From: Ferroglobus placidus DSM 10642
GTDB taxonomy: Archaea > Halobacteriota > Archaeoglobi > Archaeoglobales > Archaeoglobaceae
DNA: 32,000 nucleotides
Direction of reading: 5' to 3'
Assembly (NCBI RefSeq): GCF_000025505.1
Contig: NC_013849.1
Span: 450,001 to 482,000, forward strand
Shown here: piece by piece, positions 5,340 through 31,948 of the stretch
Numbering within the stretch: the stretch's first letter is position 1
Layout of the letters: the number at the start of each line of letters is the position of its first letter
Notes under the pieces: model-generated
The model's input: only the letters and a program-made list of their open reading frames with translations
The model's database searches: none
What the model was told of the DNA's origin: nothing
Made by a program: the position numbers and the translations under genes

Positions 5340-5825
5340 ATGTGGGCCGTCCACGCAGGTCCATGGTGGGAACCAAAGATTCTCAGGGTTTTCAAAAACA
5401 GGGAGGATGCTGAGAAGGGAAGGGTAGTTCTTGCATACGAGCTTGCTCGGAAAAGAGCGATAGATCCCCTCGACGAGATAGGGAGCTGTCTGGACGATCT
5501 CGGAGTGCTTGAGCTCGAAGCGGAAAAACCACCCTCCGATGAGGAGGTGCTGGGCATTCTGAAGGATACCACAACCTCTGCTTTCGAGGAGGGGCTTGCT
5601 GGTGCATTGAATAACATGCGCACCCTGCTCGATGCAGTGGCAGAGCTATACGATCCAGACGCAATTCTGCAGAAGATTGCAGAGGGTGTGAAAAAGTACA
5701 GGGGGAATTCGAAGCACATCCCGATTACCAGCAAAGCTCTCGACGACTTCATTTTTGAGGTTGCAGACGCACTCGGAATTTCGGAGGAAAGGGTGAAGAA
5801 GGTGCTGCTTCCCGCAATTCTGTAG
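5340..5825 (+). CDS. hypothetical acidic protein with conserved C-terminal tail (..GISEERVKKVLLPAIL)
   Basis: ORF with a GTG-ATG start at 5337/5340 after gagggaggg. The C-terminal ~55 aa resemble those of the 10085 and 10552 proteins (DAILQKIAEGVKK / DDILHAVAEGLKA). Ends in the shared tail motif. Confidence 0.7.
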   Translation: MWAVHAGPWWEPKILRVFKNREDAEKGRVVLAYELARKRAIDPLDEIGSCLDDLGVLELEAEKPPSDEEVLGILKDTTTSAFEEGLAGALNNMRTLLDAVAELYDPDAILQKIAEGVKKYRGNSKHIPITSKALDDFIFEVADALGISEERVKKVLLPAIL

Positions 5826-5918
5826 GACTGCTGAGAACTCTTTTCTGAATCGAGAAGGTGTTAGGCTTGTTACTCTGTAGTTGTGTTTTGCGTTTGGATT
5901 TGTTTGGGAGGTGGTAAG

Positions 5919-7325
5919 GTGCACGAGCAAGACATGTTCAAACTACCTCCAAGAGAGAGGGTGAAGAAGGCAAGGGTAAAACTCCTGAGAGAGAAGCCGT
6001 TTTTCGGCTATGCTTTGATGCACATCCCTTTGGTGGCAAAGGATGATCCAAAGCCTAAGGGCCCGAAGATCGTCTACAACCCCGATTTTGTAGAGAAGCT
6101 TGACGACGATGAGCTCCAGGCAGTTCTCTGCCACGAACTGCTCCATTATCTGTTGATGCACACCAAAAGATCAAAGGAGATGCGCAGAAAAGAGAGAGAG
6201 GGGACGCTCAATGAATACGACAGGAGGAGGAACATTGCTGAAGACATTGTGGTGAATGCCCTCCTCACAAAGAATGGATTTAAGCTCCCGGAATCGAAGG
6301 TGATAATCAGCGGTAATGAGATAAAGGTGAGGCAGGGTGCAATTGTTCCTCAGCTTGACTACAGAACCGGCAAACTGGTTGTGAGGATGAGGGATGCAGA
6401 GGGCAAGTTATACGAGATATTTGACCCAGAGCAGAAGTCAGCTGAGGAGGTTTACTGGGAAATAAAGGACTTTGCCGTGGGCGATGATGGTAGCGATGAG
6501 GATGACACAATGTACTTCTCGGATGATGAGAGCTACGACGACAGCGAGGAGAGTAGAAGTAGAAGTGGTGGTGGTAGCAGCAGCAGAGGTGACCGTGGCA
6601 GAAAAGACAGAGAAAGTAAAGGAAAAGGAAAAGGGGAAGTTAAGGATAAAGATAGAAAGGACACGGAAGCTGGGAGTGATGGCGGCAATGACGGCAGTGA
6701 CAGCAGAGTTAAATCTCCCGCACAACTGCTGAGCGAGGCTTACAACTACGCCAAAATGCAGGGCAAGGATCCGGCAGGGTTTGACAGGCTGGTTGAGAAG
6801 GCTTTGAAACCAAAGATCAACTGGAAGGCACTGTTAAGGCAGCACGTATCCAAGATGGTACCCCACGACTACAGCTTCCTCAAGCCGAGCAGGAAGAGCC
6901 CGCCGAACATTATCCTGCCCGGGATTGTTAAGGGAGAGAGCATTGAGGGCATTGTTGCTGTTGATACATCCGGATCGATAAGCGATGAAGAGCTTTCCCA
7001 GTTTTTATCGGAGATAAGATGGATCGCCAGAAACTACCCATCAATCAACATAACGCTTGTGAGCTGCGATGCAGCAATCCATACAGAGGAGCAGATAAGG
7101 AGCAGATACGAGCTTGATAAGTTCAAGCCGAAGGGTGGAGGGGGAACTGACTTCAGACCCGTGTTTGAGCTTGCAGCAAAGAAGAGGGCAAGGCTGGTCA
7201 TATACTTCACAGACGGCTACGGCTCATTCCCCGAGAGAAAGCCAAGATTTTCAACAATCTGGGTTGTGTCCGAGCAGGGAGCTCCGGAATCTCATTTCCC
7301 GTTCGGCAAAGTCATCAAGATGTGA
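5919..7325 (+). CDS. putative metallopeptidase (HExxH) plus VWA-like domain protein, DUF2201-type partner of MoxR ATPase
   Basis: HExxH in LCHELLHYLLMH. The C-terminal VWA-like region has AVDTSGSIS ... GGGGTDF ... IYFTDGYG. A ~75-aa Asp/Ser/Gly/Lys-rich low-complexity insert sits between the domains. GTG 5919 occupies the exact cassette position (gaggtggtaagGTG, 5908-5921). Confidence 0.85.
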   Translation: MHEQDMFKLPPRERVKKARVKLLREKPFFGYALMHIPLVAKDDPKPKGPKIVYNPDFVEKLDDDELQAVLCHELLHYLLMHTKRSKEMRRKEREGTLNEYDRRRNIAEDIVVNALLTKNGFKLPESKVIISGNEIKVRQGAIVPQLDYRTGKLVVRMRDAEGKLYEIFDPEQKSAEEVYWEIKDFAVGDDGSDEDDTMYFSDDESYDDSEESRSRSGGGSSSRGDRGRKDRESKGKGKGEVKDKDRKDTEAGSDGGNDGSDSRVKSPAQLLSEAYNYAKMQGKDPAGFDRLVEKALKPKINWKALLRQHVSKMVPHDYSFLKPSRKSPPNIILPGIVKGESIEGIVAVDTSGSISDEELSQFLSEIRWIARNYPSINITLVSCDAAIHTEEQIRSRYELDKFKPKGGGGTDFRPVFELAAKKRARLVIYFTDGYGSFPERKPRFSTIWVVSEQGAPESHFPFGKVIKM

Positions 7326-7331
7326 GGTACC

Positions 7332-7886
7332 ATGACAGACTGGGTTCAATTCTCATTAAAAATGCTGGAGAGAACCTGGAAAGAGAACTACAAAAGAATC
7401 TCAGTCACATGGGTCTACGAGTCTGCAGTCCCGGACGAGATCGGAAAAATAACGTACGTAGAGATATGTGAAAGAGAGATAAACAGCCAAAAAGACCTTC
7501 AGAGATGGCAAGAGAGGTTGCAGATGTATCCTTTAGAGCTAGTATCTTTTCTTGATGAAAATGAAGATATGAGGAACTTCAAAGATATACTCGACGATCT
7601 GAAGAGATGCGAAAGATTTAGAATTGATGCCTGTATTAAGATTGTCAAAAAAGTCAAAGAAAGGCTGTATCTCGCCACACTACTTGGAGATAGTTATTTG
7701 CTTAAACTGCTCCCTGAAGGCAGAAAACAATTAGTATTTGACGTCTTTCCAGACAGAAAATATCAATGGGTCAGGCTACACTCGGACTCCGAAGACGATA
7801 TCTTCACCGACACAGTTCTTATAAAAGATAAAAGAGAGATGTTATTCGAATGTAGTATCGCTGTTTTTGTAATTTATGTTTATTAA
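7332..7886 (+). CDS. hypothetical protein (184 aa), low-GC block
   Basis: Long ORF with ATG 7 nt after the upstream stop. AT-rich codon usage differs from the flanking genes. No shared tail. Confidence 0.6.
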   Translation: MTDWVQFSLKMLERTWKENYKRISVTWVYESAVPDEIGKITYVEICEREINSQKDLQRWQERLQMYPLELVSFLDENEDMRNFKDILDDLKRCERFRIDACIKIVKKVKERLYLATLLGDSYLLKLLPEGRKQLVFDVFPDRKYQWVRLHSDSEDDIFTDTVLIKDKREMLFECSIAVFVIYVY

Positions 7887-7903
7887 AGAGGAGGTGATGT
7901 GTG

Positions 7904-8962
7904 ATGGTGGTTGAAAATTTTGAAATAAAAAATCCCTATGCTTCTAGAATTCTCGATAAACTTCCGACATGGATCAAGTCTGCCAAACCAAAGTATCTTG
8001 TCCTAAGTGGTGTTTCACCATATCTTGACGAGTTCAGAGCGTACCTTTTAGATCAAATACACAGCATATATGGCATTTCCTTTGACCTCACAAGCGACAA
8101 AATATACCACAAAGGCGAGGAAATTTCACCAGAGCTATTTCTATACTTCTCGGAAGAGAGTCCGAAGGAAGGTCTTTTCTACCTCGACCTATTGGTTTTC
8201 AGAGCTATAGCTCTTAACCACTTTGGAAAAATAATTGAAAGACATGACATTGATGCCAGCGAGGACTACATCGCCAGTGGATACAAGCTCTTTCCGCCGG
8301 TCTCTGATTTTCTCAAGATGCTTGACGTAAGCTGCACCGACATCATTGATAGCATCGATAGTAGCTCTCTCGACAACCTGCCAGCGATAGGCACGGAACA
8401 CGAGAGCCTACTGAGTGCGTTTGGATTCAGAGGACTTAACATCTGGGGAACAATTCCCATAGCAAGCTACAAAACGGAGAAGAAGGAGAACTTGCTACTC
8501 GTTTACAACACTCCACTACATCTGCCGGTACACAACACAGCATATCTTGAAAACATAAATCCAAAGAAAAAAGCAGACTCATACTTTGCAGAGAGGCTTG
8601 CTCCAGCATTCGATTTCTGGATTCCAGATAAGTCTGAAGTCGAAAGATTTGCTTTGATGGACATTGAAGGCTACAAGCTCACAGTTCTAAGGACGATAGT
8701 CTACATACTCGGATATCCTACAGTGAGAGTCAGCATTTGCGATGAAACAGTAGAAGCAAAGATCAGAATCGGAAAGTACGGAGATCCAGTGCTTGAGATT
8801 GACGACGTGTGCGACCACGACTACAAGTGGGTCATTATACCAACAGAGAATGCAAGAGAAGCTGCAAGAGTTCTTGATGAAATACTAACATACAACTTTG
8901 GGATCAGTGAAATCAGGAGAACTTCGAATCCTAAAGCAGTCTTTGCAACCTATGAAATTTAA
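7904..8962 (+). CDS. hypothetical protein (352 aa), low-GC block
   Basis: Long ORF with start gaggaggtgatgtGTGATG (GTG 7901 or ATG 7904). No recognisable motif and no shared tail. Confidence 0.65.
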   Translation: MVVENFEIKNPYASRILDKLPTWIKSAKPKYLVLSGVSPYLDEFRAYLLDQIHSIYGISFDLTSDKIYHKGEEISPELFLYFSEESPKEGLFYLDLLVFRAIALNHFGKIIERHDIDASEDYIASGYKLFPPVSDFLKMLDVSCTDIIDSIDSSSLDNLPAIGTEHESLLSAFGFRGLNIWGTIPIASYKTEKKENLLLVYNTPLHLPVHNTAYLENINPKKKADSYFAERLAPAFDFWIPDKSEVERFALMDIEGYKLTVLRTIVYILGYPTVRVSICDETVEAKIRIGKYGDPVLEIDDVCDHDYKWVIIPTENAREAARVLDEILTYNFGISEIRRTSNPKAVFATYEI

Positions 8963-9030
8963 TCTTTTTAACATTAGTTCATTATTTAAGCTTTTGAGGT
9001 TAAAGTTGTGGTGGAAAAAGAGGTGGTGGG

Positions 9031-9510
9031 ATGGTAAAGTGCTATGTGTGCTGGAAAAGATTTGGTAGCAATGAAGAGTTCTTCAAACATGCCGTAGAAG
9101 AGCACGGTAGTATAGAGGAAGCCATCTACGAGATAGAGGAGATACGCGGAGAGCCCACCGAAGCCCTTAATGTTCCTGGCTTCATAGAAGCCGAATATGA
9201 CTCAGAGGTTCTGAGAGTCAAGAAGCTGCGAGGTGTTGCAGACAACAGATATTTCATTGACGTACACGACTGCCACGGCAGATTGCATTTCGGAGTTGTC
9301 AAGGATGACTGGAAAAAGATCGGTGATGGTTGGTTTTCTGTCCCAGGACTTCTCTACAGAAAAGACATTGAGAAAGAGCTTGAAAAGATCTGCTGGATGG
9401 TCCTGGAAGATAGAGGTGGAGCAATAAACATCTCGGGGAAGTATTACCTCGACGACGAACACATAGGAAGAATACTCTTCCTCACGGGAGTTTGCGGTTT
9501 AGAGGGATGA
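9031..9510 (+). CDS. C2H2 zinc-finger protein (159 aa)
   Basis: N-terminal CYVCWKRFGSNEEFFKHAVEEH fits C-x2-C-x12-H-x4-H. Start context is gaggtggtgggATG. Confidence 0.65.
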   Translation: MVKCYVCWKRFGSNEEFFKHAVEEHGSIEEAIYEIEEIRGEPTEALNVPGFIEAEYDSEVLRVKKLRGVADNRYFIDVHDCHGRLHFGVVKDDWKKIGDGWFSVPGLLYRKDIEKELEKICWMVLEDRGGAINISGKYYLDDEHIGRILFLTGVCGLEG

Positions 9511-10084: not shown

Positions 10085-10537
10085 ATGGGGAGTGTGACTA
10101 ATACAGCGATCTGTCCGGTATGCGGGGAGGAGTACTGGTACGATTATGATACAAGAACCGGAACCACCACAAAGCTCTCATCCTGTGCATGCGACCGTGA
10201 GATAGAATGCATGAGAGAATTCATCAGGATGAAAGGGCTAAAGGATGAGTTCAGGGAGTTCATGAGGGAGAGGGAGAAGGAATACTGGCATGACTGGATT
10301 GTTGAGAGGGGTGAAGTGGCGTATGATGTACAGGAGTTTCTTGAATCTCTCAAAGAGCGCATTGAAAGTATACAGGAGTTCCTGGGCACAGACGACATAC
10401 TGCACGCTGTGGCGGAGGGATTGAAGGCGGTGGGATGTGGCCCGCAGGAACTGGATAAGGTCGTGAGGGAGCTTGCAGAACTTCTTGGAGGAAGTGGAGA
10501 GGCGGTCAGGAAAAAGATGCTGGCTGCACTGCTTTAG
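10085..10537 (+). CDS. zinc-ribbon protein with conserved C-terminal module and tail (..AVRKKMLAALL)
   Basis: ATG 10085 follows gaggtggtgtgc. N-terminal CPVCGEEYWYDYD...SSCAC. The C-terminal ~50 aa are paralogous to the next gene. Confidence 0.75.
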   Translation: MGSVTNTAICPVCGEEYWYDYDTRTGTTTKLSSCACDREIECMREFIRMKGLKDEFREFMREREKEYWHDWIVERGEVAYDVQEFLESLKERIESIQEFLGTDDILHAVAEGLKAVGCGPQELDKVVRELAELLGGSGEAVRKKMLAALL

Positions 10538-10551: not shown

Positions 10552-10806
10552 TTGCCAATTCTTCCTCTCCATCCCTTCGCCTTGGGACTCTATGCTGACC
10601 TCTCAGCCTGGCTGAAAAGTGTTGAAGAGCATGTTGACGAGCTCCTTTCTGAAGGAGGCGATGAGTTGCTGGAAATCGTGGCGGAGAGCTTGAAGGAGAC
10701 AGGGTGCGACCCGGAGGAGCTGGATGAAACTGTGAGGGGGCTTGCAGAGCTGCTCGGTGAAAATGAGGAAGTAGTCAGAAGGAAAATCCTTGAGAAGATT
10801 CTGTAG
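10552..10806 (+). CDS. small protein, paralog of the C-terminal module of the upstream gene, with tail (..VVRRKILEKIL)
   Basis: TTG start sits exactly at the cassette position (gggtggtagtTTG, 10542-10554). LEIVAESLKETGCDPEELDETVRGLAELLGENEEVVRRKILEKIL aligns with LHAVAEGLKAVGCGPQELDKVVRELAELLGGSGEAVRKKMLAALL. Confidence 0.7.
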   Translation: MPILPLHPFALGLYADLSAWLKSVEEHVDELLSEGGDELLEIVAESLKETGCDPEELDETVRGLAELLGENEEVVRRKILEKIL

Positions 10807-11286: not shown

Positions 11287-11541
11287 ATGACTTTGGTGGG
11301 AGAAGAGAGAGTTAGGAAGTTTGTGATTGTGCAGTTCTATGACAGCGAGATGGAAGACACACCATTCCTCGTTGAAACAGATCTGACTGAGGAGGAGCTT
11401 TCAGAGCAGGTTGAGGAGATCATAAAGAGATATGAGGAAGAGGAGTTCTACGACTGGTCGTATGATGATATTGTGGAGGAGCTTAAGAAAAGGGGCGTGA
11501 TCAGAGTTATCCCCGCTGACTTCTACAGAATCTACGCCTGA
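11287..11541 (+). CDS. small acidic protein (84 aa), tandem paralog family
   Basis: Cassette gaggtggtagtATG at 11276-11289. WSYDDIVEELKKRGVIRVIPADFYRIYA aligns with the next gene. Confidence 0.7.
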   Translation: MTLVGEERVRKFVIVQFYDSEMEDTPFLVETDLTEEELSEQVEEIIKRYEEEEFYDWSYDDIVEELKKRGVIRVIPADFYRIYA

Positions 11542-11612: not shown

Positions 11613-11858
11613 ATGGGCGAAGATGAGAAGAAAATGGTGGTTTTGCGCCTCTATGATGAGAATTTACACAGTATCTATGTCGTAAAGACGGTCTTGACTG
11701 AGAAGGAACTTTCTAAGCTCGTCAGGGAGGTTGTTGATGAGATCTTTGAAACCAATTGGTGTTATGAGGACATCATCGAAGAGCTGGAGAAGAGAGGGGC
11801 TATTGAGAGGGTTAATGCTGATTTCTGCGAGATTTATGTCCCGCTTTTTGATTTTTGA
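11613..11858 (+). CDS. small acidic protein (81 aa), tandem paralog of 11287..11541
   Basis: Cassette gatgtggtagaATG at 11602-11615. WCYEDIIEELEKRGAIERVNADFCEIYV aligns with the previous gene. Confidence 0.7.
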   Translation: MGEDEKKMVVLRLYDENLHSIYVVKTVLTEKELSKLVREVVDEIFETNWCYEDIIEELEKRGAIERVNADFCEIYVPLFDF

Positions 11859-11892: not shown

Positions 11893-12621
11893 ATGGGGAA
11901 GCTCTCTAAAAAATGCCCAAAATGCGGATCAAAGGAAGTTGTAACCATGCATCCCACCGATGGCAAGGCTGTTGAGGATCTCGAAAGACTGTCTGAAAGC
12001 AGCTACTGGCAGGATCTTGTGTACATACAGTGCAGAAACTGCGGATATTACCTGGACAGCAAAAAACCAGCTCCTGCATCCGCAACATTCTGCAGCGAGT
12101 GCTTCTGCTTCGGTTACACCAAACTGTATCAGGACTTCGTCACCTACAGCGGATTCGATGAGGAGGTTGATAACTCATCAGATCTCGTAAGAGTCTACTG
12201 TCCTGCATGCGATGGTGAGGAGCTGGTAAAGGTTGATCTCAGCACAGAGTTTTCAGAAATTCTGTCTGAGCTTGGTGATCTGGCAGATGAGGAAGGGATT
12301 AGCCTGACACAGAGCATAGAGTGGGCAGATGATGAGAGCACTGCCAGGGAGTACTCAATAGCAGCCCTGATCTTTACCGCTGCAGGGAAGGGCATTATCA
12401 GAACAAAGCACCACACCTCCACACGGCATGTGAATGAAAATACGGAAAAAGCGAGGGAGCTGCTTGAAAAGGCAATAAGGGTGGATGCAAGGGCTGTAAT
12501 TAATGTGGTTAAGCTCCTGTCAAAGACGCGGGCCTGGAGAGATGCGAAGGTGAGGGACGTTGCAGTGTGGGTGGATGCAGTGATCAGAAATCACCCTGAA
12601 GTCCTTGCAGACCTCATGTAA
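11893..12621 (+). CDS. double zinc-ribbon protein, AAGKG family (242 aa)
   Basis: Cys pairs CPKCGSKE...CRNCGYY and CSECFCF...CPACDGEE. The motif YSIAALIFTAAGKG is shared with the 15445 and 29631 proteins. Confidence 0.7.
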   Translation: MGKLSKKCPKCGSKEVVTMHPTDGKAVEDLERLSESSYWQDLVYIQCRNCGYYLDSKKPAPASATFCSECFCFGYTKLYQDFVTYSGFDEEVDNSSDLVRVYCPACDGEELVKVDLSTEFSEILSELGDLADEEGISLTQSIEWADDESTAREYSIAALIFTAAGKGIIRTKHHTSTRHVNENTEKARELLEKAIRVDARAVINVVKLLSKTRAWRDAKVRDVAVWVDAVIRNHPEVLADLM

Positions 12622-12700: not shown

Positions 12701-13303
12701 ATGTCATGGGAGACGCTTGTTGTGGGATCTTTAGCCTTCAAATCCGGAACTCCTGAAGAGATCAAGTTACAGATTCTTGAGGAGCTCGAAGAGGTGCTGG
12801 AAACAACGATAGAGTATGATGCAAGGTGGCAGGAGTGGAAATTTGAGGACGTTAACTGGACATCACACGTCTCTGAAGAAAAAATAAGGAAGGTTTACAA
12901 TAAATGGAGGCCTTTCTTCACCAGATTTTCAGTATCGCTGTACTACCTATCTGAAGCAGATTACAGCGAGCACGATGAGGCTGAAGATCAGGATGCAAAG
13001 GCAATTCTGGAGGGAATTGTAGATTCTCTCCTGAGAGGGGAGAATGACGGAGATTTGGGTGAGGAGGAAAATAGCGTGGGCGAGGTGCTCGAACTCCTTA
13101 CAAAGTTTGTGAGGGGGGTGAAGGACAGAGATGTAGTGCGTGAGGTGCTTACACCAAAAATTGACAGAATAGCAGAAGTCATTGCAGAGAGAGGAGGGAT
13201 TGAGAGGGAAAAGATGCCTGTGGTTCTGGAACTTATTGGTGTTCTGGAGGAAATGAACATTCCGGCGGAGGGGCTCAAGAAAACCCTGCTTGAGGCCGCG
13301 TAA
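12701..13303 (+). CDS. hypothetical acidic protein with tail-like C-terminus (..GLKKTLLEAA)
   Basis: Same frame as track ORF 12689..13303. ATG 12701 follows gggtgag. An AT-rich TATA-like stretch, cttttattaattaaag, lies about 55 nt upstream. Confidence 0.65.
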   Translation: MSWETLVVGSLAFKSGTPEEIKLQILEELEEVLETTIEYDARWQEWKFEDVNWTSHVSEEKIRKVYNKWRPFFTRFSVSLYYLSEADYSEHDEAEDQDAKAILEGIVDSLLRGENDGDLGEEENSVGEVLELLTKFVRGVKDRDVVREVLTPKIDRIAEVIAERGGIEREKMPVVLELIGVLEEMNIPAEGLKKTLLEAA

Positions 13304-23258: not shown

Positions 23259-23519
23259 ATGTGTTATGTGAAAGGTAGCAAAATAGTGCCATGCGAAAAA
23301 AGCAAACGCAACAAAGCCTTGTGTGCCAGAATAACGCAAAAACTTCAGACAGGCAAAACGTACAAAATAGATTCAGGAGACTTTGATCCATACTACTACA
23401 CTGTGGAGAGCATCGAGGAAGACAGTATAAAAGTCTCAATGACTTTAATACATCCGGACGTTGCCTACAGACACAATATTTGCAACGCCAGAGCTCATGG
23501 TACTATTAAACTTATCTAA
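23259..23519 (+). CDS. hypothetical protein (86 aa), low-GC block
   Basis: ORF follows gaggtgatgaaaag. No recognisable motif. Confidence 0.55.
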   Translation: MCYVKGSKIVPCEKSKRNKALCARITQKLQTGKTYKIDSGDFDPYYYTVESIEEDSIKVSMTLIHPDVAYRHNICNARAHGTIKLI

Positions 23520-23763: not shown

Positions 23764-24738
23764 ATGTCTGAGTCCAAATTCTGGTTGATAAGTGGTTTTC
23801 ACGGTAACCGGGATTTTTCGCAGCAGATAGGCGGCCCCGTGATTGATATCCCGCACTGCGATTATTATGCGGTCTATGAGGAGTACACCATGAACTTAAC
23901 AGACCTGTGCAGGCCTGATCCTGATTTAAGCGAGACTGAAGCGGCTGAAATGTTTGCAGAGCTTGCAAACGCTTATCTTGATGAGGTGACTGAGAAGCTG
24001 AAACTTCTCGTAGAATACCTGTACGATGACGTGTTCTTCATTGTGAGTAACCGCGACTATCCCAGCATGCTGGTAGTAGATATATATGCTGTAGCTCCCG
24101 TCGAACCAGAAGACTACTTACGACAGGAATACGATTATTTTATAGATGCAGAAACACTTGTCAAGATTGCGAAGGCTTATGACAGGCTGAACAACGAGGA
24201 GGAAGCTATAAAGGCGGTTCTTGGTAACATATCTGAGGAGGAGCTGGAGAGATGGATAGGCTTTGACTGGCAGGACGTGCTGGATGCGGCAGAACGCCAC
24301 GAAAACGCAATGAAGGAGCTCGAAGATTTCAGGAGGAGGTGCAGGGTTGAAAAGGGCTATCTTGTGGATGTGGATGTTACAGGGCTGTACACCCTTCACC
24401 AAGGAGAATACAGGGATGAGAACATTGTTCTGTTCAGACCAAGAGAGGATAGCAGCCTGAGATACATAATGGACAGGAAGACGCTTCGAATCTGGAGCAT
24501 CCAGCACTCTCCTCTTTTTGAACACAGACCGGTTCTGCACCTCTGCAGGTACATTGAGGCCTGTTTGAAGTCAGAGGCAGAGGCAGATGCCGAAAAGGAG
24601 GCCAGGAAAAGAGAGGCGCTTGAGGCTCTCTTCAACTCGCTTGGAGAGCCGATCGATCTCGCAGGACGAGAAGAGCAGTTTGCAGAGTGCCTCATTGGAA
24701 TTGGACTGAAAAAGGAGGCCTTAGCGCTCACGCTGTGA
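23764..24738 (+). CDS. hypothetical acidic protein (324 aa) with tail (..GLKKEALALTL)
   Basis: taggaggggatactATG start. Long ORF with no recognisable domain. Confidence 0.7.
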   Translation: MSESKFWLISGFHGNRDFSQQIGGPVIDIPHCDYYAVYEEYTMNLTDLCRPDPDLSETEAAEMFAELANAYLDEVTEKLKLLVEYLYDDVFFIVSNRDYPSMLVVDIYAVAPVEPEDYLRQEYDYFIDAETLVKIAKAYDRLNNEEEAIKAVLGNISEEELERWIGFDWQDVLDAAERHENAMKELEDFRRRCRVEKGYLVDVDVTGLYTLHQGEYRDENIVLFRPREDSSLRYIMDRKTLRIWSIQHSPLFEHRPVLHLCRYIEACLKSEAEADAEKEARKREALEALFNSLGEPIDLAGREEQFAECLIGIGLKKEALALTL

Positions 24739-24813: not shown

Positions 24814-25449
24814 GTGGGTTATACGGTGGATATTATCGAATGCTCTCTTACTGCAAAATCTGTAGAGGAGGCGAAGAAGATCATCGAAGAGTTCGAGCGA
24901 GAAGGTGTGTTTGAGATCGATGAGGAGGGACACATAAGGCCCACTGACTGGTCTTTCAACTGGAGTAGTGACGAATACCTGTTCTTTGCTGCTTTAAGCA
25001 GGGTTGCAGAAGGATATATAGCGTTCAGAGGAGAGAACGGAGAAATCTGGAAGATTGAGCTGAAAGATGGAGAAATCATAGACTACACTGCAGAAATCGT
25101 TTACAGAAAGACCGGTTCAGCCAGGATCCATGAGGACTTTTTCAAGAAAAAGATGGTGGCCAATGAGAGATATGTTGCTGCTGTAACAGAGTTTGATACG
25201 GTAATTGCATACGACAGGAAACACAGGCAATGGCTGAACATCCGGCTCTACGGATCTCTGGCAGATCTTGAGATTCTTGAGGCCATTATCCGCGGGGAGG
25301 ATCTGAGTTTGCAGAGCGAGGAGCAGTGGAGCACAAAGGCTTGGCTTGACCGCGAAACTATTGAGGAATTTGCCCGAAAAGTTCTGAGCTCAGACATTGA
25401 CCAAAAAATAAAAAATGAGGTAAAGAAGGAATTGCTAACCTTACTTTAG
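24814..25449 (+). CDS. hypothetical protein (211 aa) with tail (..EVKKELLTLL)
   Basis: GTG start follows aaggaggtgggaaa. A GT-rich spacer lies upstream (ctgtttgatttgggtttttgaacttgattt). Confidence 0.7.
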   Translation: MGYTVDIIECSLTAKSVEEAKKIIEEFEREGVFEIDEEGHIRPTDWSFNWSSDEYLFFAALSRVAEGYIAFRGENGEIWKIELKDGEIIDYTAEIVYRKTGSARIHEDFFKKKMVANERYVAAVTEFDTVIAYDRKHRQWLNIRLYGSLADLEILEAIIRGEDLSLQSEEQWSTKAWLDRETIEEFARKVLSSDIDQKIKNEVKKELLTLL

Positions 25450-25521: not shown

Positions 25522-26652
25522 TCAATCTTCCTGGTCTTTGTTATCGTGATGTTGCCAGCATTCACAGTGATCTTTATCTCGTAACTCCCCTGCATAGCAG
25601 CAGCAGTTCAGTTTAGTTTCATGGTCTTTGTTATCGTGATCTCTCCGGCATTTGCCGTGATCCTCATCTCGTAACTCCCCTGCATAGCAGCAGCAGTTCG
25701 ATTTCCCTCCTAAAGGATGCGGACAAATGGGTTTGCAGGGTTCGCCAGGTTTGCAGGGTGGACAGGGTATTTCAGGTGGACAAGGTTCGCCAAGTGAGCA
25801 ATGAATCCTTTTTACGGTCACGGTAACGGTGTCTTCAGCTGTCTGTCCTGCTGTATCAACTGCAACAGCTCTGATTGTGTGCGTTCCAACCGTGAGAGCT
25901 ATTGTTGTATCGTATGGAGAATGACGGTCTTTTCCAATGGGGTGGCCATCAGCATAGAACTCAACTCTCCAGATTCCTTTATCATCGCTTGCATCAGCCA
26001 CAATTTTCATCCTACAGGCGTTTGAGTGGGTTATACAGACGTATCCATCATGTGGGGAGGTTATCTTGACTGTTGGTGGGTTGTCTGGGGCTGGAGTCGG
26101 AGTCGGTGTTGGAGTTGGTGTAGGTGTTGGAGTTGGAGTAGGAGCAGGCGTCGGAGTCGGTGACGGGGTAGGAGTGGGTGTTGGAGTCGTTGACGGGGTA
26201 GGAGTAGCTGGAGAAGCTTCAACTTTCACGGGTTTGCTTTCAGCCACAGTTGCTTTTGTGGGCCCGTAAACCAGGCTGAACGTCAGCATTCCTCCCCTCT
26301 TAAGCAGACTCGATGGTATAACTATCTGGTCTCCAGGATCAAACCTCAGCCTGTCCTTAACATCCTCTACGATAAGCCCCGGATCGGTTGCAGGAATTGT
26401 CTGGAGTACTGTTCCGTCAGCTGTCATAATGGTAAGGGAAAGATCGCTGTACTTTATCGAATCTCCGCCAGTATGCCTTACGATTATGGCCTTCGATGTG
26501 TCTGAGGGTTCGATGAAAGAAATGGCTGCAGCAGGGTTTTTCTCAGCCGCCAGACCGGCATGTGCGGCAACGGCTGCAGTACCGACAGCACCAGCCACTG
26601 CTAGAAAGATTAGAATAATTAGAGGGATTGCTCCGGATTCACTCCTCTCCAT
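25522..26652 (-). CDS. secreted/surface protein: pilin-like signal, Pro-Thr linker, Ig-like domain, Cys/His/Asp-rich C-terminal repeats
   Basis: This is the only minus-strand gene. N-terminal MERSESGAIPLIILIFLAVAGAVGTAAVA resembles an archaeal class III (type IV pilin-like) signal. It has a (TP)n linker and an Ig-like segment, VKITSPHDGY...WRVEFYADGHPIG...THTIRAVAVDTAGQTAEDTVTVTV. The C-terminal NCCCYAGELRDxDHxxCxxxHDNKDxE occurs twice. The RBS on the minus strand is aaggtggtagtATG (26650-26663). Confidence 0.8.
   Translation of the reverse strand: MERSESGAIPLIILIFLAVAGAVGTAAVAAHAGLAAEKNPAAAISFIEPSDTSKAIIVRHTGGDSIKYSDLSLTIMTADGTVLQTIPATDPGLIVEDVKDRLRFDPGDQIVIPSSLLKRGGMLTFSLVYGPTKATVAESKPVKVEASPATPTPSTTPTPTPTPSPTPTPAPTPTPTPTPTPTPTPTPAPDNPPTVKITSPHDGYVCITHSNACRMKIVADASDDKGIWRVEFYADGHPIGKDRHSPYDTTIALTVGTHTIRAVAVDTAGQTAEDTVTVTVKRIHCSLGEPCPPEIPCPPCKPGEPCKPICPHPLGGKSNCCCYAGELRDEDHGKCRRDHDNKDHETKLNCCCYAGELRDKDHCECWQHHDNKDQED
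25533..25712. repeat. 90-bp tandem repeat x2 inside the minus-strand gene (encodes the CCCY..DH..C..HDNKD module)
   Basis: ggtctttgttatcgtgat starts at both 25533 and 25623, and ctcgtaactcccctgcatagcagcagcagtt is identical in both copies. Confidence 0.85.
26085..26212. repeat. low-complexity ggWgtYgg microsatellite-like tract encoding the (Thr-Pro)n linker
   Basis: Runs of ggagtcgg / ggtgttgg / ggagttgg on the + strand correspond to PTPTPTP on the minus strand. Confidence 0.8.
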
Positions 26653-26787: not shown

Positions 26788-27828
26788 ATGGAGACTGCAG
26801 GCAGGTTGAAAGCAGGGCTCGTGGACAGGAGTAAGAACGCTAGAGGAGGTGAAAGTGAAGGAATAGGTGTGAATGAGAACAGAAAGAGTGGAAGGAGCAA
26901 GAGCGTGAATGATGGTGGGGGATGGAGTGGAGAAGACGGTACATGCCCGGAGTGCGGAAGCCCGAGACTTGTCACGGACCACAGTCGCGGAGAGGTTTTC
27001 TGCCAGGACTGCGGGATTGTTGTTGAAGATGCTCGCCTTGACTACGGCCCGGAGTGGAGGTCATATGACAGTGAGCGTGGAATGCAGAGGGCAAGGGCAG
27101 GGCCTCCAGTTGTGCTCACTCTCCATGACAAGGGGTTTACCACAACAATAGGGAACGATAGAGACAGCCACGGCAATCCACTCTCCCCCAAAACAAGAAT
27201 CCAGTTTACCAGACTGAGAAAGTGGCAGAGCAAAATCAGAACAAACAGCTCTGCAGAGAGGAATCTTGTACGATCACTGATGGAGCTTGAGAGAATCACG
27301 TCTTCCCTTGGGCTGCCTAAAAGCATAACGGAGAGGGCGGCACTCATCTACAGAAGGGTAGTCAGTAATAACCTGACGAGGGGGAGGTGTATAGACAGCA
27401 TTGTTGCCGCTGCAGTGTACGCAGCATGCAGGGAGGCAGGACTGCCGAGGACGCTGGATGAAGTTGCAGCCCACTCCAGTGTGGATAAAAGGTCTGTTGG
27501 AAGAGCGTACAGATTCCTTGCAAGAACGCTCGGGCTGAAGCCTGCTCCAATCACCTCTACAGACTACGTGCCGAAGATCTGCGCAGCACTTGGAGTGAGC
27601 GGGGAGGTGCAGGAGAGGGCTCTGGAAATCGTAAATGAGGCTGAGAAAAGCATGGTTAGCAGAAGTCCAGCAGGTGTGGCTGCGGCTGCAGTTTACATTG
27701 CATCAATCCTGCTTGGAGAGAGGAGAACGCAGAGGGAAGTGGCAGGAGTTGCAGGAGTCACAGAAGTCACGATAAGGAACTGCTACAAGATGATAACTGA
27801 CAGACTGGGAATAGAGCTGCTCCTTTAG
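26788..27828 (+). CDS. tfb: transcription initiation factor B (TFIIB homolog) with ~50-aa Gly/Ser/Asn-rich N-terminal extension
   Basis: Zn-ribbon CPECGSPRLVTDHSRGEVFCQDCGIVVED, B-linker region GPEWRSY, and two cyclin-like repeats (ERAALIYRRVV...SIVAAAVYAACREAGLPRTLDEVA; AGVAAAAVYIASILLGERRTQREVAGVAGVTEVTIRNCYK). ATG 26788 follows aggtggtatat (cassette). Confidence 0.92.
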   Translation: METAGRLKAGLVDRSKNARGGESEGIGVNENRKSGRSKSVNDGGGWSGEDGTCPECGSPRLVTDHSRGEVFCQDCGIVVEDARLDYGPEWRSYDSERGMQRARAGPPVVLTLHDKGFTTTIGNDRDSHGNPLSPKTRIQFTRLRKWQSKIRTNSSAERNLVRSLMELERITSSLGLPKSITERAALIYRRVVSNNLTRGRCIDSIVAAAVYAACREAGLPRTLDEVAAHSSVDKRSVGRAYRFLARTLGLKPAPITSTDYVPKICAALGVSGEVQERALEIVNEAEKSMVSRSPAGVAAAAVYIASILLGERRTQREVAGVAGVTEVTIRNCYKMITDRLGIELLL

Positions 27829-27837
27829 TGTGGTCTT

Positions 27838-28194
27838 ATGTCCGTCCTGAAGGATGTTTTAAGCAGAGAGTCTTGTTCAACTCCCTTTCCTGAACCTGAA
27901 CCCGAGCATGAGCATGGATGTGAGAAGTCTGAGACCGGTGAGAAGTCTGAGACCACTCTCAAATGCCCTTTTTGCGAATACAGAGCTAGCAATCTAGCAA
28001 AACTCAAAAGCCACATCCTGAGGCACGACCTCAGCATCTGCCCTGTGTGCGGTAAGAAGTTCAAGAGATTGCTAAGCCACGTTGCAGGGATGAGGGATGA
28101 AAAGCACCAGGAGCTCTACGCTCTGATAGGGCACTATGGCAAAGGCAACAGAGATCGGTTGAGAGAGCTGAGGGGCAGGTTTCTGGAAAAGTAG
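27838..28194 (+). CDS. C2H2 zinc-finger protein (118 aa)
   Basis: LKCPFCEYRASNLAKLKSHILRH is a classical C2H2 finger, and a second CPVCGKKFKRLLSHVAGMRDEKH follows. The N-terminus has PEPEPEHEH and a tandem EKSETG/EKSETT (18-bp DNA repeat at 27922-27954). Confidence 0.7.
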   Translation: MSVLKDVLSRESCSTPFPEPEPEHEHGCEKSETGEKSETTLKCPFCEYRASNLAKLKSHILRHDLSICPVCGKKFKRLLSHVAGMRDEKHQELYALIGHYGKGNRDRLRELRGRFLEK

Positions 28195-28690: not shown

Positions 28691-29608
28691 ATGAGGGACG
28701 AGTTGGACGAGCTCGTTCACCAGGCTTTCCGTGAGGCATGCAGTGGAGAGGGCTGCAGCATTGAGAAAGGGGATGGCAGGTTCGTGGTCAGGCACGACAC
28801 GGATGTTCTCTCTGTACGCTGGCCGGAAATAGAAATTCTTAACACCGGGCTCAAAACAATGCGCGTTCTCGTGAAAGCATTACACCTGCTGCAGATCCGC
28901 TGCGAGGGCACCTTGAACTTCCTTCTGAAGCTGTACGACCGTGCAGTCATGCAGTGCCTGCCTGTTGTGGAGGGGGCAGTCATCGACCTGGAAAAGAGGA
29001 GGGCGGAAGTGTCTGGAGGGAAGCAACCTGGTCAGACAGAGCTTGTGGATATGCTGAACAGGCTGAACGATTTTTTCCTGAACGCTGCAGCAAAGTACGG
29101 GCAGATCACCGCAAATACTCTGTACAGCTGCATCCTGGACACACACCTCCTGACAGATCCCGAAGACTTATCATCTCCCATTTCATTTCCCGGCTTCAGA
29201 GACCTGGAGAGCATCATGGCCGCTGCAACAGCAGTTGCGGGGAAGAGGCTGTGGTTTGTGAAGTTTCAGAACAGCATTCTTGCAAAGGTGCTGGCAAAAT
29301 CCCTGCCCCTGCATCCTCTCTCTGAGAGCGCAATGTGCCTCCTCATCACACCAGACGGAGTTTCAAGGCTGGACGTGGCAAAAACACCGCATTATGCAGC
29401 GGCAAATCTTGTCGGAGTGCTCTGGGATGTTGCGCGGAATGAGAGAAGAGTGAAGTACAGCTGGAGGAACGAAAAATCCGCAAAGCTGCTCAAGGAGTTC
29501 ATTGAAAGGGCGAGGACTGTGGAGGTTGCGGGCAGGGATCAGATAATTGGCAGGTTTGTCGAGAGTCTGCCTGAAAAGGCAAGGAAATCACTTCTAACTC
29601 TTATCTGA
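28691..29608 (+). CDS. hypothetical protein (305 aa) with tail (..EKARKSLLTLI)
   Basis: Long ORF with no recognisable domain. Followed by tgaggttttttta. Confidence 0.65.
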   Translation: MRDELDELVHQAFREACSGEGCSIEKGDGRFVVRHDTDVLSVRWPEIEILNTGLKTMRVLVKALHLLQIRCEGTLNFLLKLYDRAVMQCLPVVEGAVIDLEKRRAEVSGGKQPGQTELVDMLNRLNDFFLNAAAKYGQITANTLYSCILDTHLLTDPEDLSSPISFPGFRDLESIMAAATAVAGKRLWFVKFQNSILAKVLAKSLPLHPLSESAMCLLITPDGVSRLDVAKTPHYAAANLVGVLWDVARNERRVKYSWRNEKSAKLLKEFIERARTVEVAGRDQIIGRFVESLPEKARKSLLTLI

Positions 29609-29630
29609 GGTTTTTTTACGGGTAATATTC

Positions 29631-30101
29631 ATGGAGGTGGCAGGATTGAGAACGGTTGTAGCTGAATTCTGCGCGGAGTGTCTGGAGTCAACCCTGAAAC
29701 AGTCTTTTTTCACGGATGAGAAGGAGTGCAGCGAGTGCCTGTCCAAAGTTTACTTCAAAGCCCGCATTCCGCAGGAAATAGCTGAGGAGATCCGGAGACT
29801 TCATGACTTGCACCAGCTTGAATACGGCCCGCTCACAATTCTTTACGCTGCAGCCGGACTGGTGAGGCTTGAGTACGCCGATGCAGAGCCAGAGCCAATG
29901 AGTGAGGAGGAGGTTCTTGAGAGGATAGAGGAAGGGATAAGAGGTGTAGAGGGATATGCGTATGACATACGTAACTTTGTCGATATCATAGAGGTTATAG
30001 AGCATGCAGAGTCCGAAGCAAAAATAGATAAGGACAGGCTCAGAAAACTCCTGAAAGTTGTTCAGAGACTGAAGAAGGTTGTTCTGGCGGAGATATTGTA
30101 A
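29631..30101 (+). CDS. zinc-ribbon protein related to the AAGKG family, with tail (..RLKKVVLAEIL)
   Basis: CAECLES...CSECLSK, then LTILYAAAGLVRLEY. The start is ATG 29631, or in-frame TTG 29646, which sits at the cassette position (gaggtggcaggaTTG). Confidence 0.65.
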   Translation: MEVAGLRTVVAEFCAECLESTLKQSFFTDEKECSECLSKVYFKARIPQEIAEEIRRLHDLHQLEYGPLTILYAAAGLVRLEYADAEPEPMSEEEVLERIEEGIRGVEGYAYDIRNFVDIIEVIEHAESEAKIDKDRLRKLLKVVQRLKKVVLAEIL

Positions 30102-30144
30102 TTTGGTTTTTGTAGTTTTTTGTTCTGCTCGGGAGTGAGTGAGC

Positions 30145-30594
30145 ATGCGCTGTGCTGAGGTGATAAAAGAGGCTGAAGAAGGCAACACTGAAGTGGTGCT
30201 GGAGCTGGAAGACATCTTCGAATCTTCGAATTTGTCTCATGAATTTGACAGAAAAGTCCAGGAGAACATCGAATACATTTTGAGGAGGAATTGCCTGTGG
30301 AGGGAGGGGCTGAGGACTGCTGTCCTAATCTGCAAAATCGCTCCAGACCCTGATGACACATTTTTTGGATATTTTCAGGTCTTTGATGGTACCGAGCTCG
30401 TTGCGAGAGGAGAGTTCGGCGGCACATTCGTCGTTCTGGACGAGAGAGCTTTTGAGAAACCGGATGTGGAGGGCATCGAGATCGTAGAGCTAACAATTTC
30501 GCTGCCACCGGTGGATGCAAAAAAGCTCTTTCTCCTTGACATCTCTGATCTGGGTGCTGAAGAAAAAGCTAAGCTTCTCTCCTGGGTTTTGTAG
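30145..30594 (+). CDS. hypothetical acidic protein (149 aa) with tail (..EEKAKLLSWVL)
   Basis: Same frame as track ORF 30139..30594. ATG 30145 follows gggagtgagtgagc. A GT-rich spacer lies upstream. Confidence 0.65.
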   Translation: MRCAEVIKEAEEGNTEVVLELEDIFESSNLSHEFDRKVQENIEYILRRNCLWREGLRTAVLICKIAPDPDDTFFGYFQVFDGTELVARGEFGGTFVVLDERAFEKPDVEGIEIVELTISLPPVDAKKLFLLDISDLGAEEKAKLLSWVL

Positions 30595-30621
30595 TTTTTG
30601 GTTTTTTCTCGGGGTGAGATT

Positions 30622-31383
30622 ATGAGTGTGAGCGCGGGTATGAGCGAGAGTGTGAGTGTGGTGGAAAGGATGATGGATAAGCTTCAGCTGCTGAATGATC
30701 TCTGGAAAAGGGTTAAAGTGCTGCCAGAAATCACAGAACTCGCCAATAAAGTAGTGATAGCTGAATTCGGTGTTGAGGAACACTCATCCCCCTTCAGTTA
30801 CGCAGGATATAATATAAGGGCAATTCTGGATGATGTGAGGAAAGAGTTGTTCAGATTTGTTGCAGATCTGCTTGTTGAGGACACGAATGTCAGAGTGGAC
30901 TTCGCTGACCTGTATGACCGCTTTAAAGACTTCGATGCGGTAGAGGTGGCCAGATACATTGAGGAGAAGTACCTTCGCCAGGCAGATGAGCTGGCATACA
31001 GAGAAATCGTAAGCAGGGCAAGAGCTCTTCTGCCGGCACATAATGTAAGCCTGGAGAAGATCCTGAAAGGGAGAAAACTTGTCCTGCAGTACTACCTTCA
31101 CTGGAGTTACGGAAAACCATACATACACGACTTTCTTGAGGCCGCATCAGCCCTCGAAAAGCTGGCAAAGATCGTTCTCTGGAGAGTTAAGCCATCCACA
31201 GCCAGGGGGCACGCAATTTACAACGCATACTGGAACGACACAACTGATGAGGAGGTTTTGCAGAAGAAGGAGCTTGGCGGCCCGATCGAGGCTGTGAAGG
31301 TACACAAGAACGGGAACATCTACTTCTGGTTTAAGAGCGAGGAGGATGCAAAAAAGGTTGCGGAGGTGCTCCTGAGTGAGTGA
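30622..31383 (+). CDS. hypothetical protein (253 aa) with tail-like end (..DAKKVAEVLLSE)
   Basis: Same frame as track ORF 30598..31383. ATG 30622 follows ggggtgagatt. No recognisable domain. Confidence 0.65.
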   Translation: MSVSAGMSESVSVVERMMDKLQLLNDLWKRVKVLPEITELANKVVIAEFGVEEHSSPFSYAGYNIRAILDDVRKELFRFVADLLVEDTNVRVDFADLYDRFKDFDAVEVARYIEEKYLRQADELAYREIVSRARALLPAHNVSLEKILKGRKLVLQYYLHWSYGKPYIHDFLEAASALEKLAKIVLWRVKPSTARGHAIYNAYWNDTTDEEVLQKKELGGPIEAVKVHKNGNIYFWFKSEEDAKKVAEVLLSE

Positions 31384-31567
31384 ACCTGAACCTGAATATG
31401 AATTTGAGGCCATGTGGCGAAGGGAGATGCAGGAGTGGTCAAAGATTATCGAGGAGCTGGATAAAAGGTCGTTCGAGCAGGTAATAACAATAAATTCCGG
31501 AATCATCAAAGAACTGGTCTCACACTCCACAAAAATTAAAAAGCGGTTGATAGAAGTAGTACTGTAG
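31376..31567 (+). CDS. small acidic protein (63 aa) with tail (..KIKKRLIEVVL)
   Basis: GTG 31376 lies 7 nt after ggaggtg (31362-31368) and overlaps the upstream stop (GTGAGTGA). ATG 31412 is an alternative start. Confidence 0.55.
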   Translation: MSEPEPEYEFEAMWRREMQEWSKIIEELDKRSFEQVITINSGIIKELVSHSTKIKKRLIEVVL

Positions 31568-31594
31568 ATTTAACACAATTCGAGGTGTTTTTCC

Positions 31595-31948
31595 ATGACA
31601 GCTGTGCCATCTGGTGCCGCAGCTGCAGCCGCTGGGGGGGCGGCAGCAAGAGCAGCAGCAAGTGCGCAGAAGTTCACTTTTGGCTTTCTCATCTTTGAGC
31701 CTGAGGAATTTCTGAAGCTCGTGAAAACTGCAAGAGAAACAGATGGCAGGGCAGTCGTCATTCTTGTAAAAAAACGAAAGGGAGTGGTTAACAGAAAAGA
31801 TGAGTACATCTACGCCGCCAAATACGCTGATTTCACAATCCTGACCAGAAGCGAAACACCTCTAGCACTGCCGTCAAAAACCGAGCTGATTGTGAGCAGA
31901 GACATAGTACTGCCGGTAGCAGTCATGCACGCTTTGAAGATGCTTTGA
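31595..31948 (+). CDS. hypothetical protein (117 aa), Ala-rich N-terminus, weak tail (..VMHALKML)
   Basis: ORF with start context gaggtgtttttccATG. N-terminal SGAAAAAAGGAAARAAASA is low complexity. Confidence 0.55.
   Translation: MTAVPSGAAAAAAGGAAARAAASAQKFTFGFLIFEPEEFLKLVKTARETDGRAVVILVKKRKGVVNRKDEYIYAAKYADFTILTRSETPLALPSKTELIVSRDIVLPVAVMHALKML

Follow-up and report, generated by a model that had tools for sequence, protein, structure and literature searches.

Why should more than a dozen proteins, encoded close together and nearly all without a family match, end in one and the same short peptide? The question is raised by a 32,000-nucleotide stretch of Ferroglobus placidus DSM 10642 (contig NC_013849.1, positions 450,001 to 482,000 of the forward strand; hereafter the window, approximately Ferp_0514-0562, numbered from its first letter), which belongs to a one-strand island of more than 40 kb that runs past the window at both ends. 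A preliminary description, made from the letters alone, had listed 15 clear C-termini that share a tail of basic and spaced hydrophobic residues, and all 15 are present in the sequence at the coordinates given below, with public gene calls in agreement. We find that this tail stands in a fixed register to the end of the chain, that it is kept in the orthologues of related islands, and that in one island its last residue has changed in many genes at once, and we give a probability of roughly one half to the reading that it is an address tag with one common reader.

The tail can be written as (P)-x2-3-h-[KR]-[KR]-x-h-L-x-x-h-[LIVA]-COOH, where h is a hydrophobic residue, with the first basic residue opening an end segment of 9 residues in 12 of the 15 window tails and of 8 residues in the remaining three. 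A logo from 44 tails collected across islands revealed lysine or arginine at position -9 in 42 tails and at -8 in 34, leucine at -5 in 42, L, I, V or M at -2 in 37, and L, A, I or V at -1 in 42; position -10 is aliphatic or serine, and -6 is L, A, I, M or V. Alanine is frequent at the hydrophobic positions, phenylalanine and tryptophan are rare, and 26 of the 44 tails carry a proline at -13 or -12, a feature that lay outside the pattern first proposed.

A strict expression of the motif ([KR][KR].[LIVM][LIVMA]..[LIVMA][LIVM]) matches eight times in the 9,253 window residues, and seven of these eight matches end exactly at a C-terminus. Using a position-specific scoring matrix (PSSM) of the last 10 residues, applied leave-one-out with a threshold set at the score reached by 0.5% of 45,800 internal positions, 13 of the 47 window genes scored above threshold against 0.24 expected (binomial p ~1e-19), while shuffling the last 40 residues gave a mean of 0.39 hits and a maximum of 4 in 1000 shuffles against the 15 observed. 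For non-gene open reading frames (ORFs) the pass rate was 0/28 (+ strand) and 2/121 (- strand), or 2/149 together. The flanks gave 0/17 in the 9 kb upstream and 1/12 in the 9 kb downstream, and a pool of flanking and host-like genes from several Archaeoglobales loci gave 1/85, the single pass being a doubtful antisense ORF. These three samples rule out a general compositional habit as far as they reach, and within the same sampling the tail is restricted to the island. The earlier claim that it is a selected tag is supported, as the tail is absent from flanks and host-like genes, kept in orthologues, and present on unrelated genes of independent islands. Because the codons that encode it vary among genes (CTG/CTT/CTC/TTG/TTA, AAG/AAA, AGG/AGA), selection acts on the peptide and not on the DNA, just as had been proposed; the differences at synonymous sites also rule out a DNA-level signal such as a promoter or terminator overlapping the 3' ends.

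The carriers in the window are as follows, with peptides written up to the last residue before the stop codon and orthologous endings taken from related islands.

5340 to 5825, + strand: tail carrier ending VKKVLLPAIL (PSSM).
10085 to 10537, + strand: tail carrier ending VRKKMLAALL (PSSM; modelled with AlphaFold2).
10552 to 10806, + strand: tail carrier ending VRRKILEKIL, a paralogue of the C-terminal 70 amino acids (aa) of 10085-10537.
11893 to 12621, + strand: variant tail without the basic pair, HPEVLADLM; orthologues end HPELLANCI.
12701 to 13303, + strand: tail carrier ending LKKTLLEAA, one residue short and under the PSSM threshold; its sole detected relative has no tail.
13339 to 14586, + strand: tail carrier of 415 aa (Ferp_0534) ending IRQAVLAAML; orthologues end RGRILASLV and LTNLTLELI.
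14645 to 15298, + strand: tail carrier ending LRRRLLPYLI; orthologues end LKTLILPVIA, LKSLILPIVL and SQLLLPYII.
15445 to 15894, + strand: tail carrier ending AKRALLGILL (PSSM).
18345 to 20882, + strand: Hsp90-like GHKL ATPase of 845 aa with the tail SKKLALAALL (Pfam HATPase_c_3, AlphaFold2, Foldseek).
20938 to 21759, + strand: tail carrier ending VKKELLMLSI; an orthologue ends VRKKILELLV.
23764 to 24738, + strand: tail carrier ending LKKEALALTL; orthologues end YRKEALTLAL and CKKEALLFLS.
24814 to 25449, + strand: tail carrier ending VKKELLTLL, of an expanded family with five tailed paralogues in the related island L037.
28691 to 29608, + strand: tail carrier ending ARKSLLTLI, one residue short; orthologues end AKVALLGEIA and ARASLLGEIV.
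29631 to 30101, + strand: tail carrier ending LKKVVLAEIL; orthologues end LKKTILVSIL and LKKAILVGAL.
30145 to 30594, + strand: tail carrier ending EKAKLLSWVL, which passes the PSSM threshold narrowly.
31376 to 31567, + strand: tail carrier of 63 aa ending IKKRLIEVVL; orthologues end LKKRLLWIMA and LKKRLLGIMV.

Every tail carrier other than the GHKL protein lacks a match in Pfam, PHROGs, PADLOC and NCBIfam, as do nearly all other window genes. Homologue searches with 13339-14586 and with 24814-25449 each returned the query alone, and alignments are shallow for most carriers. The proteins at 5340-5825, 10085-10537 and 10552-10806 share a C-terminal region of 70 aa (E=6e-17 and 1e-6), and those at 11893-12621 and 15445-15894 are weak paralogues, so that about 11 independent families remain and the view that the carriers are mostly unrelated was somewhat overstated. 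Two domain-level explanations were rejected. A shared C-terminal domain fails in that the 70-aa similarity is confined to the three paralogues, with an iterated hidden Markov model search of 218 proteins from all loci recruiting nothing more. A helix-turn-helix (HTH) recognition helix fails in that its pattern is visible by eye only in those same paralogues, 0/15 carriers match an HTH family, and the variable positions of the tail differ from those of a DNA-reading helix. By these sequence comparisons, then, the tail is a short motif and not a domain. Among the weaker cases that had been listed beside the 15, the one at 11893-12621 turned out to be a true variant, the one at 30622-31383 is not a tail (its orthologue ends differently), and the one at 31595-31948 is undecided.

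Related islands were reached by fetching the DNA around relatives of the GHKL gene (L numbers are our labels for the loci), and they were found only in Archaeoglobales, in metagenome-assembled genomes (MAGs) and metagenomes; no relative of the island was found in IMG/VR. They too are one-strand, and share DUF6744, bpMoxR, VWA, MoxR2, DUF2201 and GHKL genes, the DNA fetched for L010 and L038 excluding bpMoxR and VWA. With a matrix trained on the window alone, so that these islands are independent of the training, tailed genes numbered 12/22 in L010, 10/20 in L037, 13/26 in L038, 8/32 in L039, 5/29 in L008, 3/5 in L013, 3/17 in L012 and 2/24 in L036. About 12 orthologous families besides GHKL keep the tail across islands, and orthologues retain it down to 32% identity, which is the conservation in relatives that had been named beforehand as a check. 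The full-length GHKL family is itself rare (about three clusters among 1.84 billion representatives, HMMER), and 15/15 of its full-length relatives, at 32-61% identity, end in the tail at the exact C-terminus; among more distant GHKL proteins a tail-like end occurs in 2/147, of which one is fragmentary. Gain or loss of tails is also seen inside families: the protein at 7332-7886 is untailed (ending ..SIAVFVIYVY), three of its detected L010 relatives are tailed, and its family forms five tandem paralogues in L010 (3257-6095), four of which are tailed (SRKELLAILA, SRKEALVALS, NKKEALLLL and SRKEALLMLA).

The islands are found in varying genomic surroundings, and decay is frequent among them, leaving GHKL genes in fragments, so that they behave as mobile or variable elements. 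GHKL genes are split or reduced to short N-terminal fragments at L025 10179-12413, at L028 7742-8440 and at about 5350-6000 of L030, L031 and L033; some of the fragments adjoin an ABC-transporter operon and another adjoins tryptophan-synthesis-like genes, a pattern that on the gene remnants indicates islands decaying in place.

The islands do not all use the same form of the tail. Compact islands of 15 kb (L012, L015, L016, L017 and L024) keep the register and the hydrophobic positions and lack the basic pair, with endings such as ELLANLI, ADILTSVL and RLVLAVLV. Between the DUF2201 gene and the run of tail genes, such compact islands hold toxin-antitoxin-like genes (AF2212-like, UPF0175, DUF3368), at 7619-8551 in L012 and also in L015, L017, L024 and L025. 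The MAG INS_M23_B45 contains both a basic-pair island (L013) and a compact island without the pair (L015), and two dialects in one MAG would fit readers encoded by the islands themselves, with the caveat that a MAG can be chimeric.

A further difference concerns the last residue. The tails of L010 mostly end in alanine, whereas the syntenic island L038 ends the same proteins in L, V or I. Across 20 reciprocal-best pairs with a mean identity of 69%, 15 have L, I, V or M as the last residue in L038, and 10 of these 15 have A or S in L010; at aligned internal positions, the same change from L/I/V/M to A/S occurs in 40/1206 (3.3%), giving p=4e-12 for the switch, a comparison that rests on one clearly A-type island. 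Ten genes that change at the same residue in the same direction point to one selective agent acting on the terminal residue, and this concerted switch is the strongest argument for a single reader and counts against membrane binding and passive structure. One altered pocket in one reader would explain ten parallel changes more simply than any other model.

What could such a reader be? Pfam identified two MoxR/VWA modules and the one GHKL ATPase in the window, and the core genes around the modules are as follows.

61 to 657, + strand: 3' part of a bpMoxR (RavA-like) AAA+ ATPase gene that starts upstream (Pfam AAA_lid_8; the full gene is bpMoxR/AAA_5, PF20030), ending LKMSMLDKMF.
755 to 2164, + strand: VWA (CoxE-like) partner of bpMoxR (Pfam VWA_2/VWA_CoxE), ending AIFQRLV.
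3603 to 4871, + strand: second MoxR-type AAA+ ATPase, MoxR2 (Pfam AAA_5).
4904 to 5317, + strand: conserved acidic protein (137-144 aa) whose gene lies between those for MoxR2 and DUF2201, of no known family, ending SVWEEII.
5919 to 7325, + strand: DUF2201_N zinc metallopeptidase (HELLH) fused to a VWA-like domain (Pfam, alignment).

In both modules a MoxR-class AAA+ gene lies near a VWA with the DxSxS..T..D pattern (bpMoxR/AAA_5 with VWA_2, and AAA_5 with DUF2201), and the MIDAS, an adhesion site dependent on a metal ion, is intact in the VWA protein (DLSGS..T..D) and in DUF2201 (DTSGS..T..D), the latter together with its HExxH. MoxR2 is conserved beside DUF2201 in all related islands, and DUF2201, as part of this conserved core, is a candidate reader. 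It has no tail (it ends FPFGKVIKM); DUF6744 is likewise untailed, and so are the two small proteins at 2258-2698 and 2683-3174. Profile searches of the PDB with three core families of no assignment returned nothing. Other receptors were considered. The GHKL ATPase had been put forward as one, but it bears the tail itself, so that it counts among the tagged proteins and makes no obvious receptor. The 144-aa protein as reader of the basic pair was dropped, being absent from the DNA fetched for L010, an island rich in KK, and docking of the type seen between MIT-interacting motifs and MIT domains found no MIT, Vps4 or Snf7 family in the window ORFs.

At MIDAS sites the sixth metal ligand is a carboxylate supplied by the bound partner, MoxR rings act via their VWA partner, and MoxR/VWA machines bind clients by a carboxylate at the MIDAS and then remodel these clients (PMC9976466). 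It is thus plausible that a MIDAS would take as its ligand a free terminal carboxylate set at constant spacing from a leucine stripe. The island core is like known MoxR/VWA pairs (RavA-ViaA, CbbQ-CbbO, NorQ-NorD, and p618-p892 from Acidianus two-tailed virus, here ATV) and has two such pairs with intact MIDAS. To our knowledge, no MoxR/VWA system recognises a shared linear tag on many clients, and the clients and recognition rules of these machines are mostly unknown. In ATV the MoxR p618 and the VWA p892 form a chaperone pair that binds several virion proteins (PMC4124505; PMC7159879), and the virus packages its MoxR and uses it in virion remodelling (PMC4124505). The island tail itself is absent from ATV proteins. 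Two reported p618 binders of ATV (L035, NC_007409), p387 (48392-49555, + strand) and p653 (39432-41393, - strand), share a C-terminus N[DN]TVKLS after an acidic run (..EEEEKNNTVKLS and ..EEEEEEGNDTVKLS); these may be a second, unrelated case of MoxR clients sharing a C-terminal tail, or mere paralogues. A bpMoxR-vWA core beside diverse proteins with a shared terminal adaptor also recalls the effector-associated domains (EADs) of MoxR-vWA ternary conflict systems, each EAD being a folded domain, death-like and about 80-100 aa long, with homotypic pairing (Kaur et al. 2020, PMC7159879). The shared element here is instead a tail of 10-13 residues, and neither Pfam nor PADLOC revealed a beta-propeller or EAD family in the window, though PF20030 bpMoxR is present.

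Two carriers, the GHKL protein and 10085-10537, were modelled with AlphaFold2, and in both models the tail is a 12-residue terminal helix. In the GHKL protein (overall predicted local distance difference test, pLDDT, 84) this helix spans residues 833-844, starts at the invariant P833, and is the last of three short helices (807-818, 822-831 and 833-844); in 10085-10537 (pLDDT 82) a small beta unit is followed by six helices, of which the tail is 138-149. The short amphipathic helix that the preliminary description had predicted is therefore matched as to the helix and much less so as to amphipathicity, with a mean hydrophobic moment of 0.22 against 0.48 for the membrane-targeting helix of E. 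coli MinD. In a Foldseek search of the PDB, the top 50 matches of the GHKL model were all Hsp90, TRAP1, GRP94 or HtpG (E 1.6e-14 to 1e-11, probability 1.0, TM 0.25-0.43), and the carrier as modelled has an Hsp90-like fold; it has no Pfam HSP90 match and by sequence is not a member of that family. Its N-domain is similar to rIIA-like proteins of phages and to the 'HSP90 chaperone' encoded by halovirus HGTV-1. Foldseek with the 10085-10537 model gave no match.

Taken together, we read the tail as a helix of 10-13 residues, often started by proline, with two basic residues, a near-invariant leucine at -5 and hydrophobic residues at -2 and -1, whose hydrophobic stripe and very end (last side chain and free carboxylate) would be read by one common partner, making otherwise unrelated island proteins into one client set. 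The earlier suggestion of a common docking, loading or export tag is thereby partly supported, through conservation, restriction to the island as sampled, and concerted change. It is a tentative and on balance doubtful step further to propose an island-encoded reader in the form of one of the MoxR/VWA modules, which are the leading candidates. In that case the terminal carboxylate of the tail would complete the metal coordination of a MIDAS, the leucine stripe would lie in an adjacent groove, and remodelling, assembly or loading of the tagged protein would fall to the attached MoxR ring. Rather speculative is the proposal that this would be the first code of client recognition to be defined for any MoxR/VWA AAA+ machine, with an island encoding a reader (a VWA MIDAS and a groove for the carboxylate and the leucine stripe) and 10-20 tagged clients including an Hsp90-like ATPase; such an island would be a self-contained, portable system that assembles, remodels or loads one multiprotein structure, and islands would use mutually insulated dialects (L-ending, A-ending, or without the basic pair).

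We found no description of the tail in the searchable literature and nothing relevant on the locus tags, DUF2201 or mobile elements of F. placidus, and we know of no short terminal address peptide described for archaeal genomic islands or for MoxR/VWA machines. As a tag it ties together about 15 proteins of no known family and offers a handle on the reader and the function of an archaeal gene block. If the reader were a MoxR/VWA module, substrate choice of these ATPases would become directly testable, and a thermostable tag-and-receptor pair could result.

Several observations weigh against a single island-encoded reader. The terminal residues of L037 are mixed, with 2 A among 10-11 tails, so that position -1 tolerates both A and L/I/V in some islands, and L036, the most divergent island, has the whole core yet 2-4 tails. 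bpMoxR, the VWA protein and the 144-aa protein themselves end in hh..hh-COOH, conserved in orthologues, which had gone unnoticed at first and fits mutual association as well as a receptor and its ligand; DUF2201 is among the conserved core proteins that do not end in this way, a contrast that might mark it as the reader or might reflect association of all the components with one another. The tail helix is modelled with confidence (pLDDT 85-88), continuous with the preceding helices and without a flexible linker in both models, and so may pack on its own protein. The host-like control is 85 genes, a small sample and not the F. placidus proteome, and a host factor varying from host to host might be the reader instead. 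Finally, DUF2201, MoxR2 and GHKL show no convincing compensating change unique to L010, the differences being few and mostly conservative. The C-terminal region of L010 MoxR2 has R354M and Q384M (L010 numbering) at positions invariant in the three L-ending islands compared, and a compensating pocket change there is a weak lead drawn from four sequences.

Microcompartments, encapsulins, secretion and chaperone networks owe their organisation to short address peptides at protein termini, and the tail resembles encapsulation peptides, cargo-loading peptides and EEVD tails in kind, while belonging to none of these classes by their defining features. The EEVD-COOH tails of Hsp70 and Hsp90, which are read by a common adaptor (tetratricopeptide repeat, TPR, co-chaperones), are likewise extreme C-terminal peptides with a free carboxylate on proteins of a chaperone system, and here an Hsp90-like protein is among the carriers. 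The island tail, however, is hydrophobic-basic and predicted to be helical, not acidic and extended; it has about 15 carriers, and no TPR protein was detected.

The rival that survives best, though unlikely, dispenses with a separate receptor: tails and preceding helices would pack into a hetero-oligomer, either among themselves or against the helices through which the Hsp90-like protein would dimerise at its C-terminus. The last helices of Hsp90 form a dimer interface, and the GHKL model ends in three short helices; the hh..hh-COOH ends of the core ATPases, the VWA and the Hsp90-like protein and the confidently modelled, linker-free tail helix are also as this rival would have them. Leucine -5 moreover sits at the exact centre of a 9-residue segment, as on the dyad of an antiparallel pair. 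A packing network, however, should resist a concerted change from L to A in ten genes, for which one reader is simpler; a helix bundle needs no exact chain end, and the compact islands lose the basic pair but keep the register.

A second rival, distinctly unlikely in our view, takes the tail as a C-terminal degron that marks proteins for an AAA+ protease, making them short-lived or timed; the protease could be the island's MoxR with the DUF2201 zinc peptidase, or PAN-proteasome, Lon or Cdc48 of the host. Like ssrA (..ALAA), the tail has an exact register and a non-polar end (..LAALL, ..ALLALA), with hydrophobic residues or alanine at -2 and -1 in 37/44 and 42/44 tails, and AAA+ machines are encoded nearby: a MoxR gene lies at most two genes from the peptidase-VWA fusion with its HExxH, directly adjoining it in compact islands. 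Archaeal PAN unfolds substrates that carry ssrA. Set against this, the island motif belongs to the gene sequences themselves instead of being appended co-translationally, takes the form of an ordered helix in the predictions where a degron would be expected to be disordered and exposed, and spans 10-13 residues with a proline and a basic pair, beyond the needs of known C-degrons; chaperone-like core proteins carry related ends, and there is no obvious reason to destabilise about one third of the island's proteins.

That the tail loads proteins into a capsid or shell, in the manner of phage scaffold or capsid-targeting sequences among others, the island being a provirus or otherwise particle-encoding, is improbable. 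Its hydrophobic spacing (LLxxIL) is like that of the encapsulation peptides of bacterial microcompartments (BMCs; PduP, PduD, EutC, CcmN), in which a short terminal hh..hh helix is a common address on unrelated proteins of one locus. But the host is archaeal, Pfam found no BMC or EutN family in 40 window ORFs, and the tail is confined to the very C-terminus, with constant spacing to the carboxylate. Its predicted helix appears to have no linker and shows no dip in pLDDT in the two models, and its moment is 0.22 against 0.4-0.7 for PduP and PduD. Encapsulin cargo-loading peptides are similarly C-terminal peptides of about 10 residues on cargo encoded beside the machinery that reads them; they are Gly/Ser/Leu-rich and extended, whereas the tail consensus is basic-Leu and helical and has far more carriers per locus, and searches with Pfam and PHROGs gave no HK97-fold, encapsulin or capsid family, two carriers having been modelled as structures. 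Viral links exist in the 815 phage records with DUF2201 homologues, in the resemblance of the GHKL N-domain to HGTV-1 and rIIA-like proteins, in the packaging of MoxR by ATV (PMC4124505), and in the variable contexts and decay of the island. Against them, Pfam over the 40 window ORFs and PHROGs detected no capsid, portal, terminase, encapsulin or BMC shell family in the window, nor was an integrase or secretion ATPase detected there; the DNA reached showed neither an integrase nor an att site, no relative was found in IMG/VR, and the compact 15-kb islands are tailed but have no room for a virion module.

A membrane-targeting helix of the MinD or FtsA type, holding the proteins at the cytoplasmic membrane, appears quite improbable: a short C-terminal helix with basic residues and leucines would suit it, and pilin-like and T2SSF genes flank the island, but the moment is less than half that of MinD, alanine is common and Phe and Trp are rare at the hydrophobic positions, the exact end would not be required, and there is no reason for a concerted switch from L to A that lowers hydrophobicity. 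Scarcely credible is a tail without any tag function, as a structural habit or the relic of an old shared module's last helix, for although three carriers share a 70-aa region, that similarity does not reach the other families, tails come and go within families (7332-7886 against its L010 relatives), and register, conservation and concerted switch require ongoing selection.

The surroundings of the tail genes offer further observations. Nearly all window genes lie on the + strand and GC skew is positive over the full window, which contains three low-GC blocks (7332-9510, 16049-17903 and 22240-23519; GC 0.38-0.44 against about 0.49 elsewhere). The genes in these blocks, including a PepSY protein, a small membrane protein and a double-HTH regulator, have no tail, as had been described before, and the blocks give the impression of having been inserted into the island later. 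Just one long gene of the window runs on the minus strand (25522-26652, - strand), and its product is an archaeal pilin-like protein that has a Big_7 domain; a second gene of this kind, Pilin_N+LTD, lies just beyond the window end (L005 6588-7346, - strand), followed in F. placidus by a T2SSF gene, and a Pilin_N+LTD homologue also borders the compact island in L024 (17247-17726, - strand), so these may mark a conserved insertion neighbourhood. A full TFB (TFIIB) homologue at 26788-27828, followed by a C2H2 zinc-finger protein (region 26788-28194), suggests that the island carries its own transcription factor.

Upstream of the window, a Cas_csx3 gene (L002 6310-6618) and the DUF6744 gene (6792-7721) lie just 5' of bpMoxR. 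DUF6744, whose C-terminus is a long helical, coiled-coil-like segment, keeps this position in the islands for which upstream DNA was fetched (F. placidus, L012, L017 and L036), and Cas6 and Cas4 genes lie at the far end of L010. Two tandem paralogues of about 80 aa at 11287-11541 and 11613-11858 (E=1e-17), with an orthologue in L008, have another conserved C-terminus (..ADFYRIYA, ..DGYYEIFA), so that not every conserved C-terminus of the island is the tail. Directly 3' of many tail-gene stop codons are runs of T (e.g. GGTTTTTTTAC and TTTGGTTTTTGTAGTTTTTTG; at 15895-15925, 29609-29625, 30102-30130 and 30595-30615), which look like archaeal oligo-T terminators between tightly packed genes.

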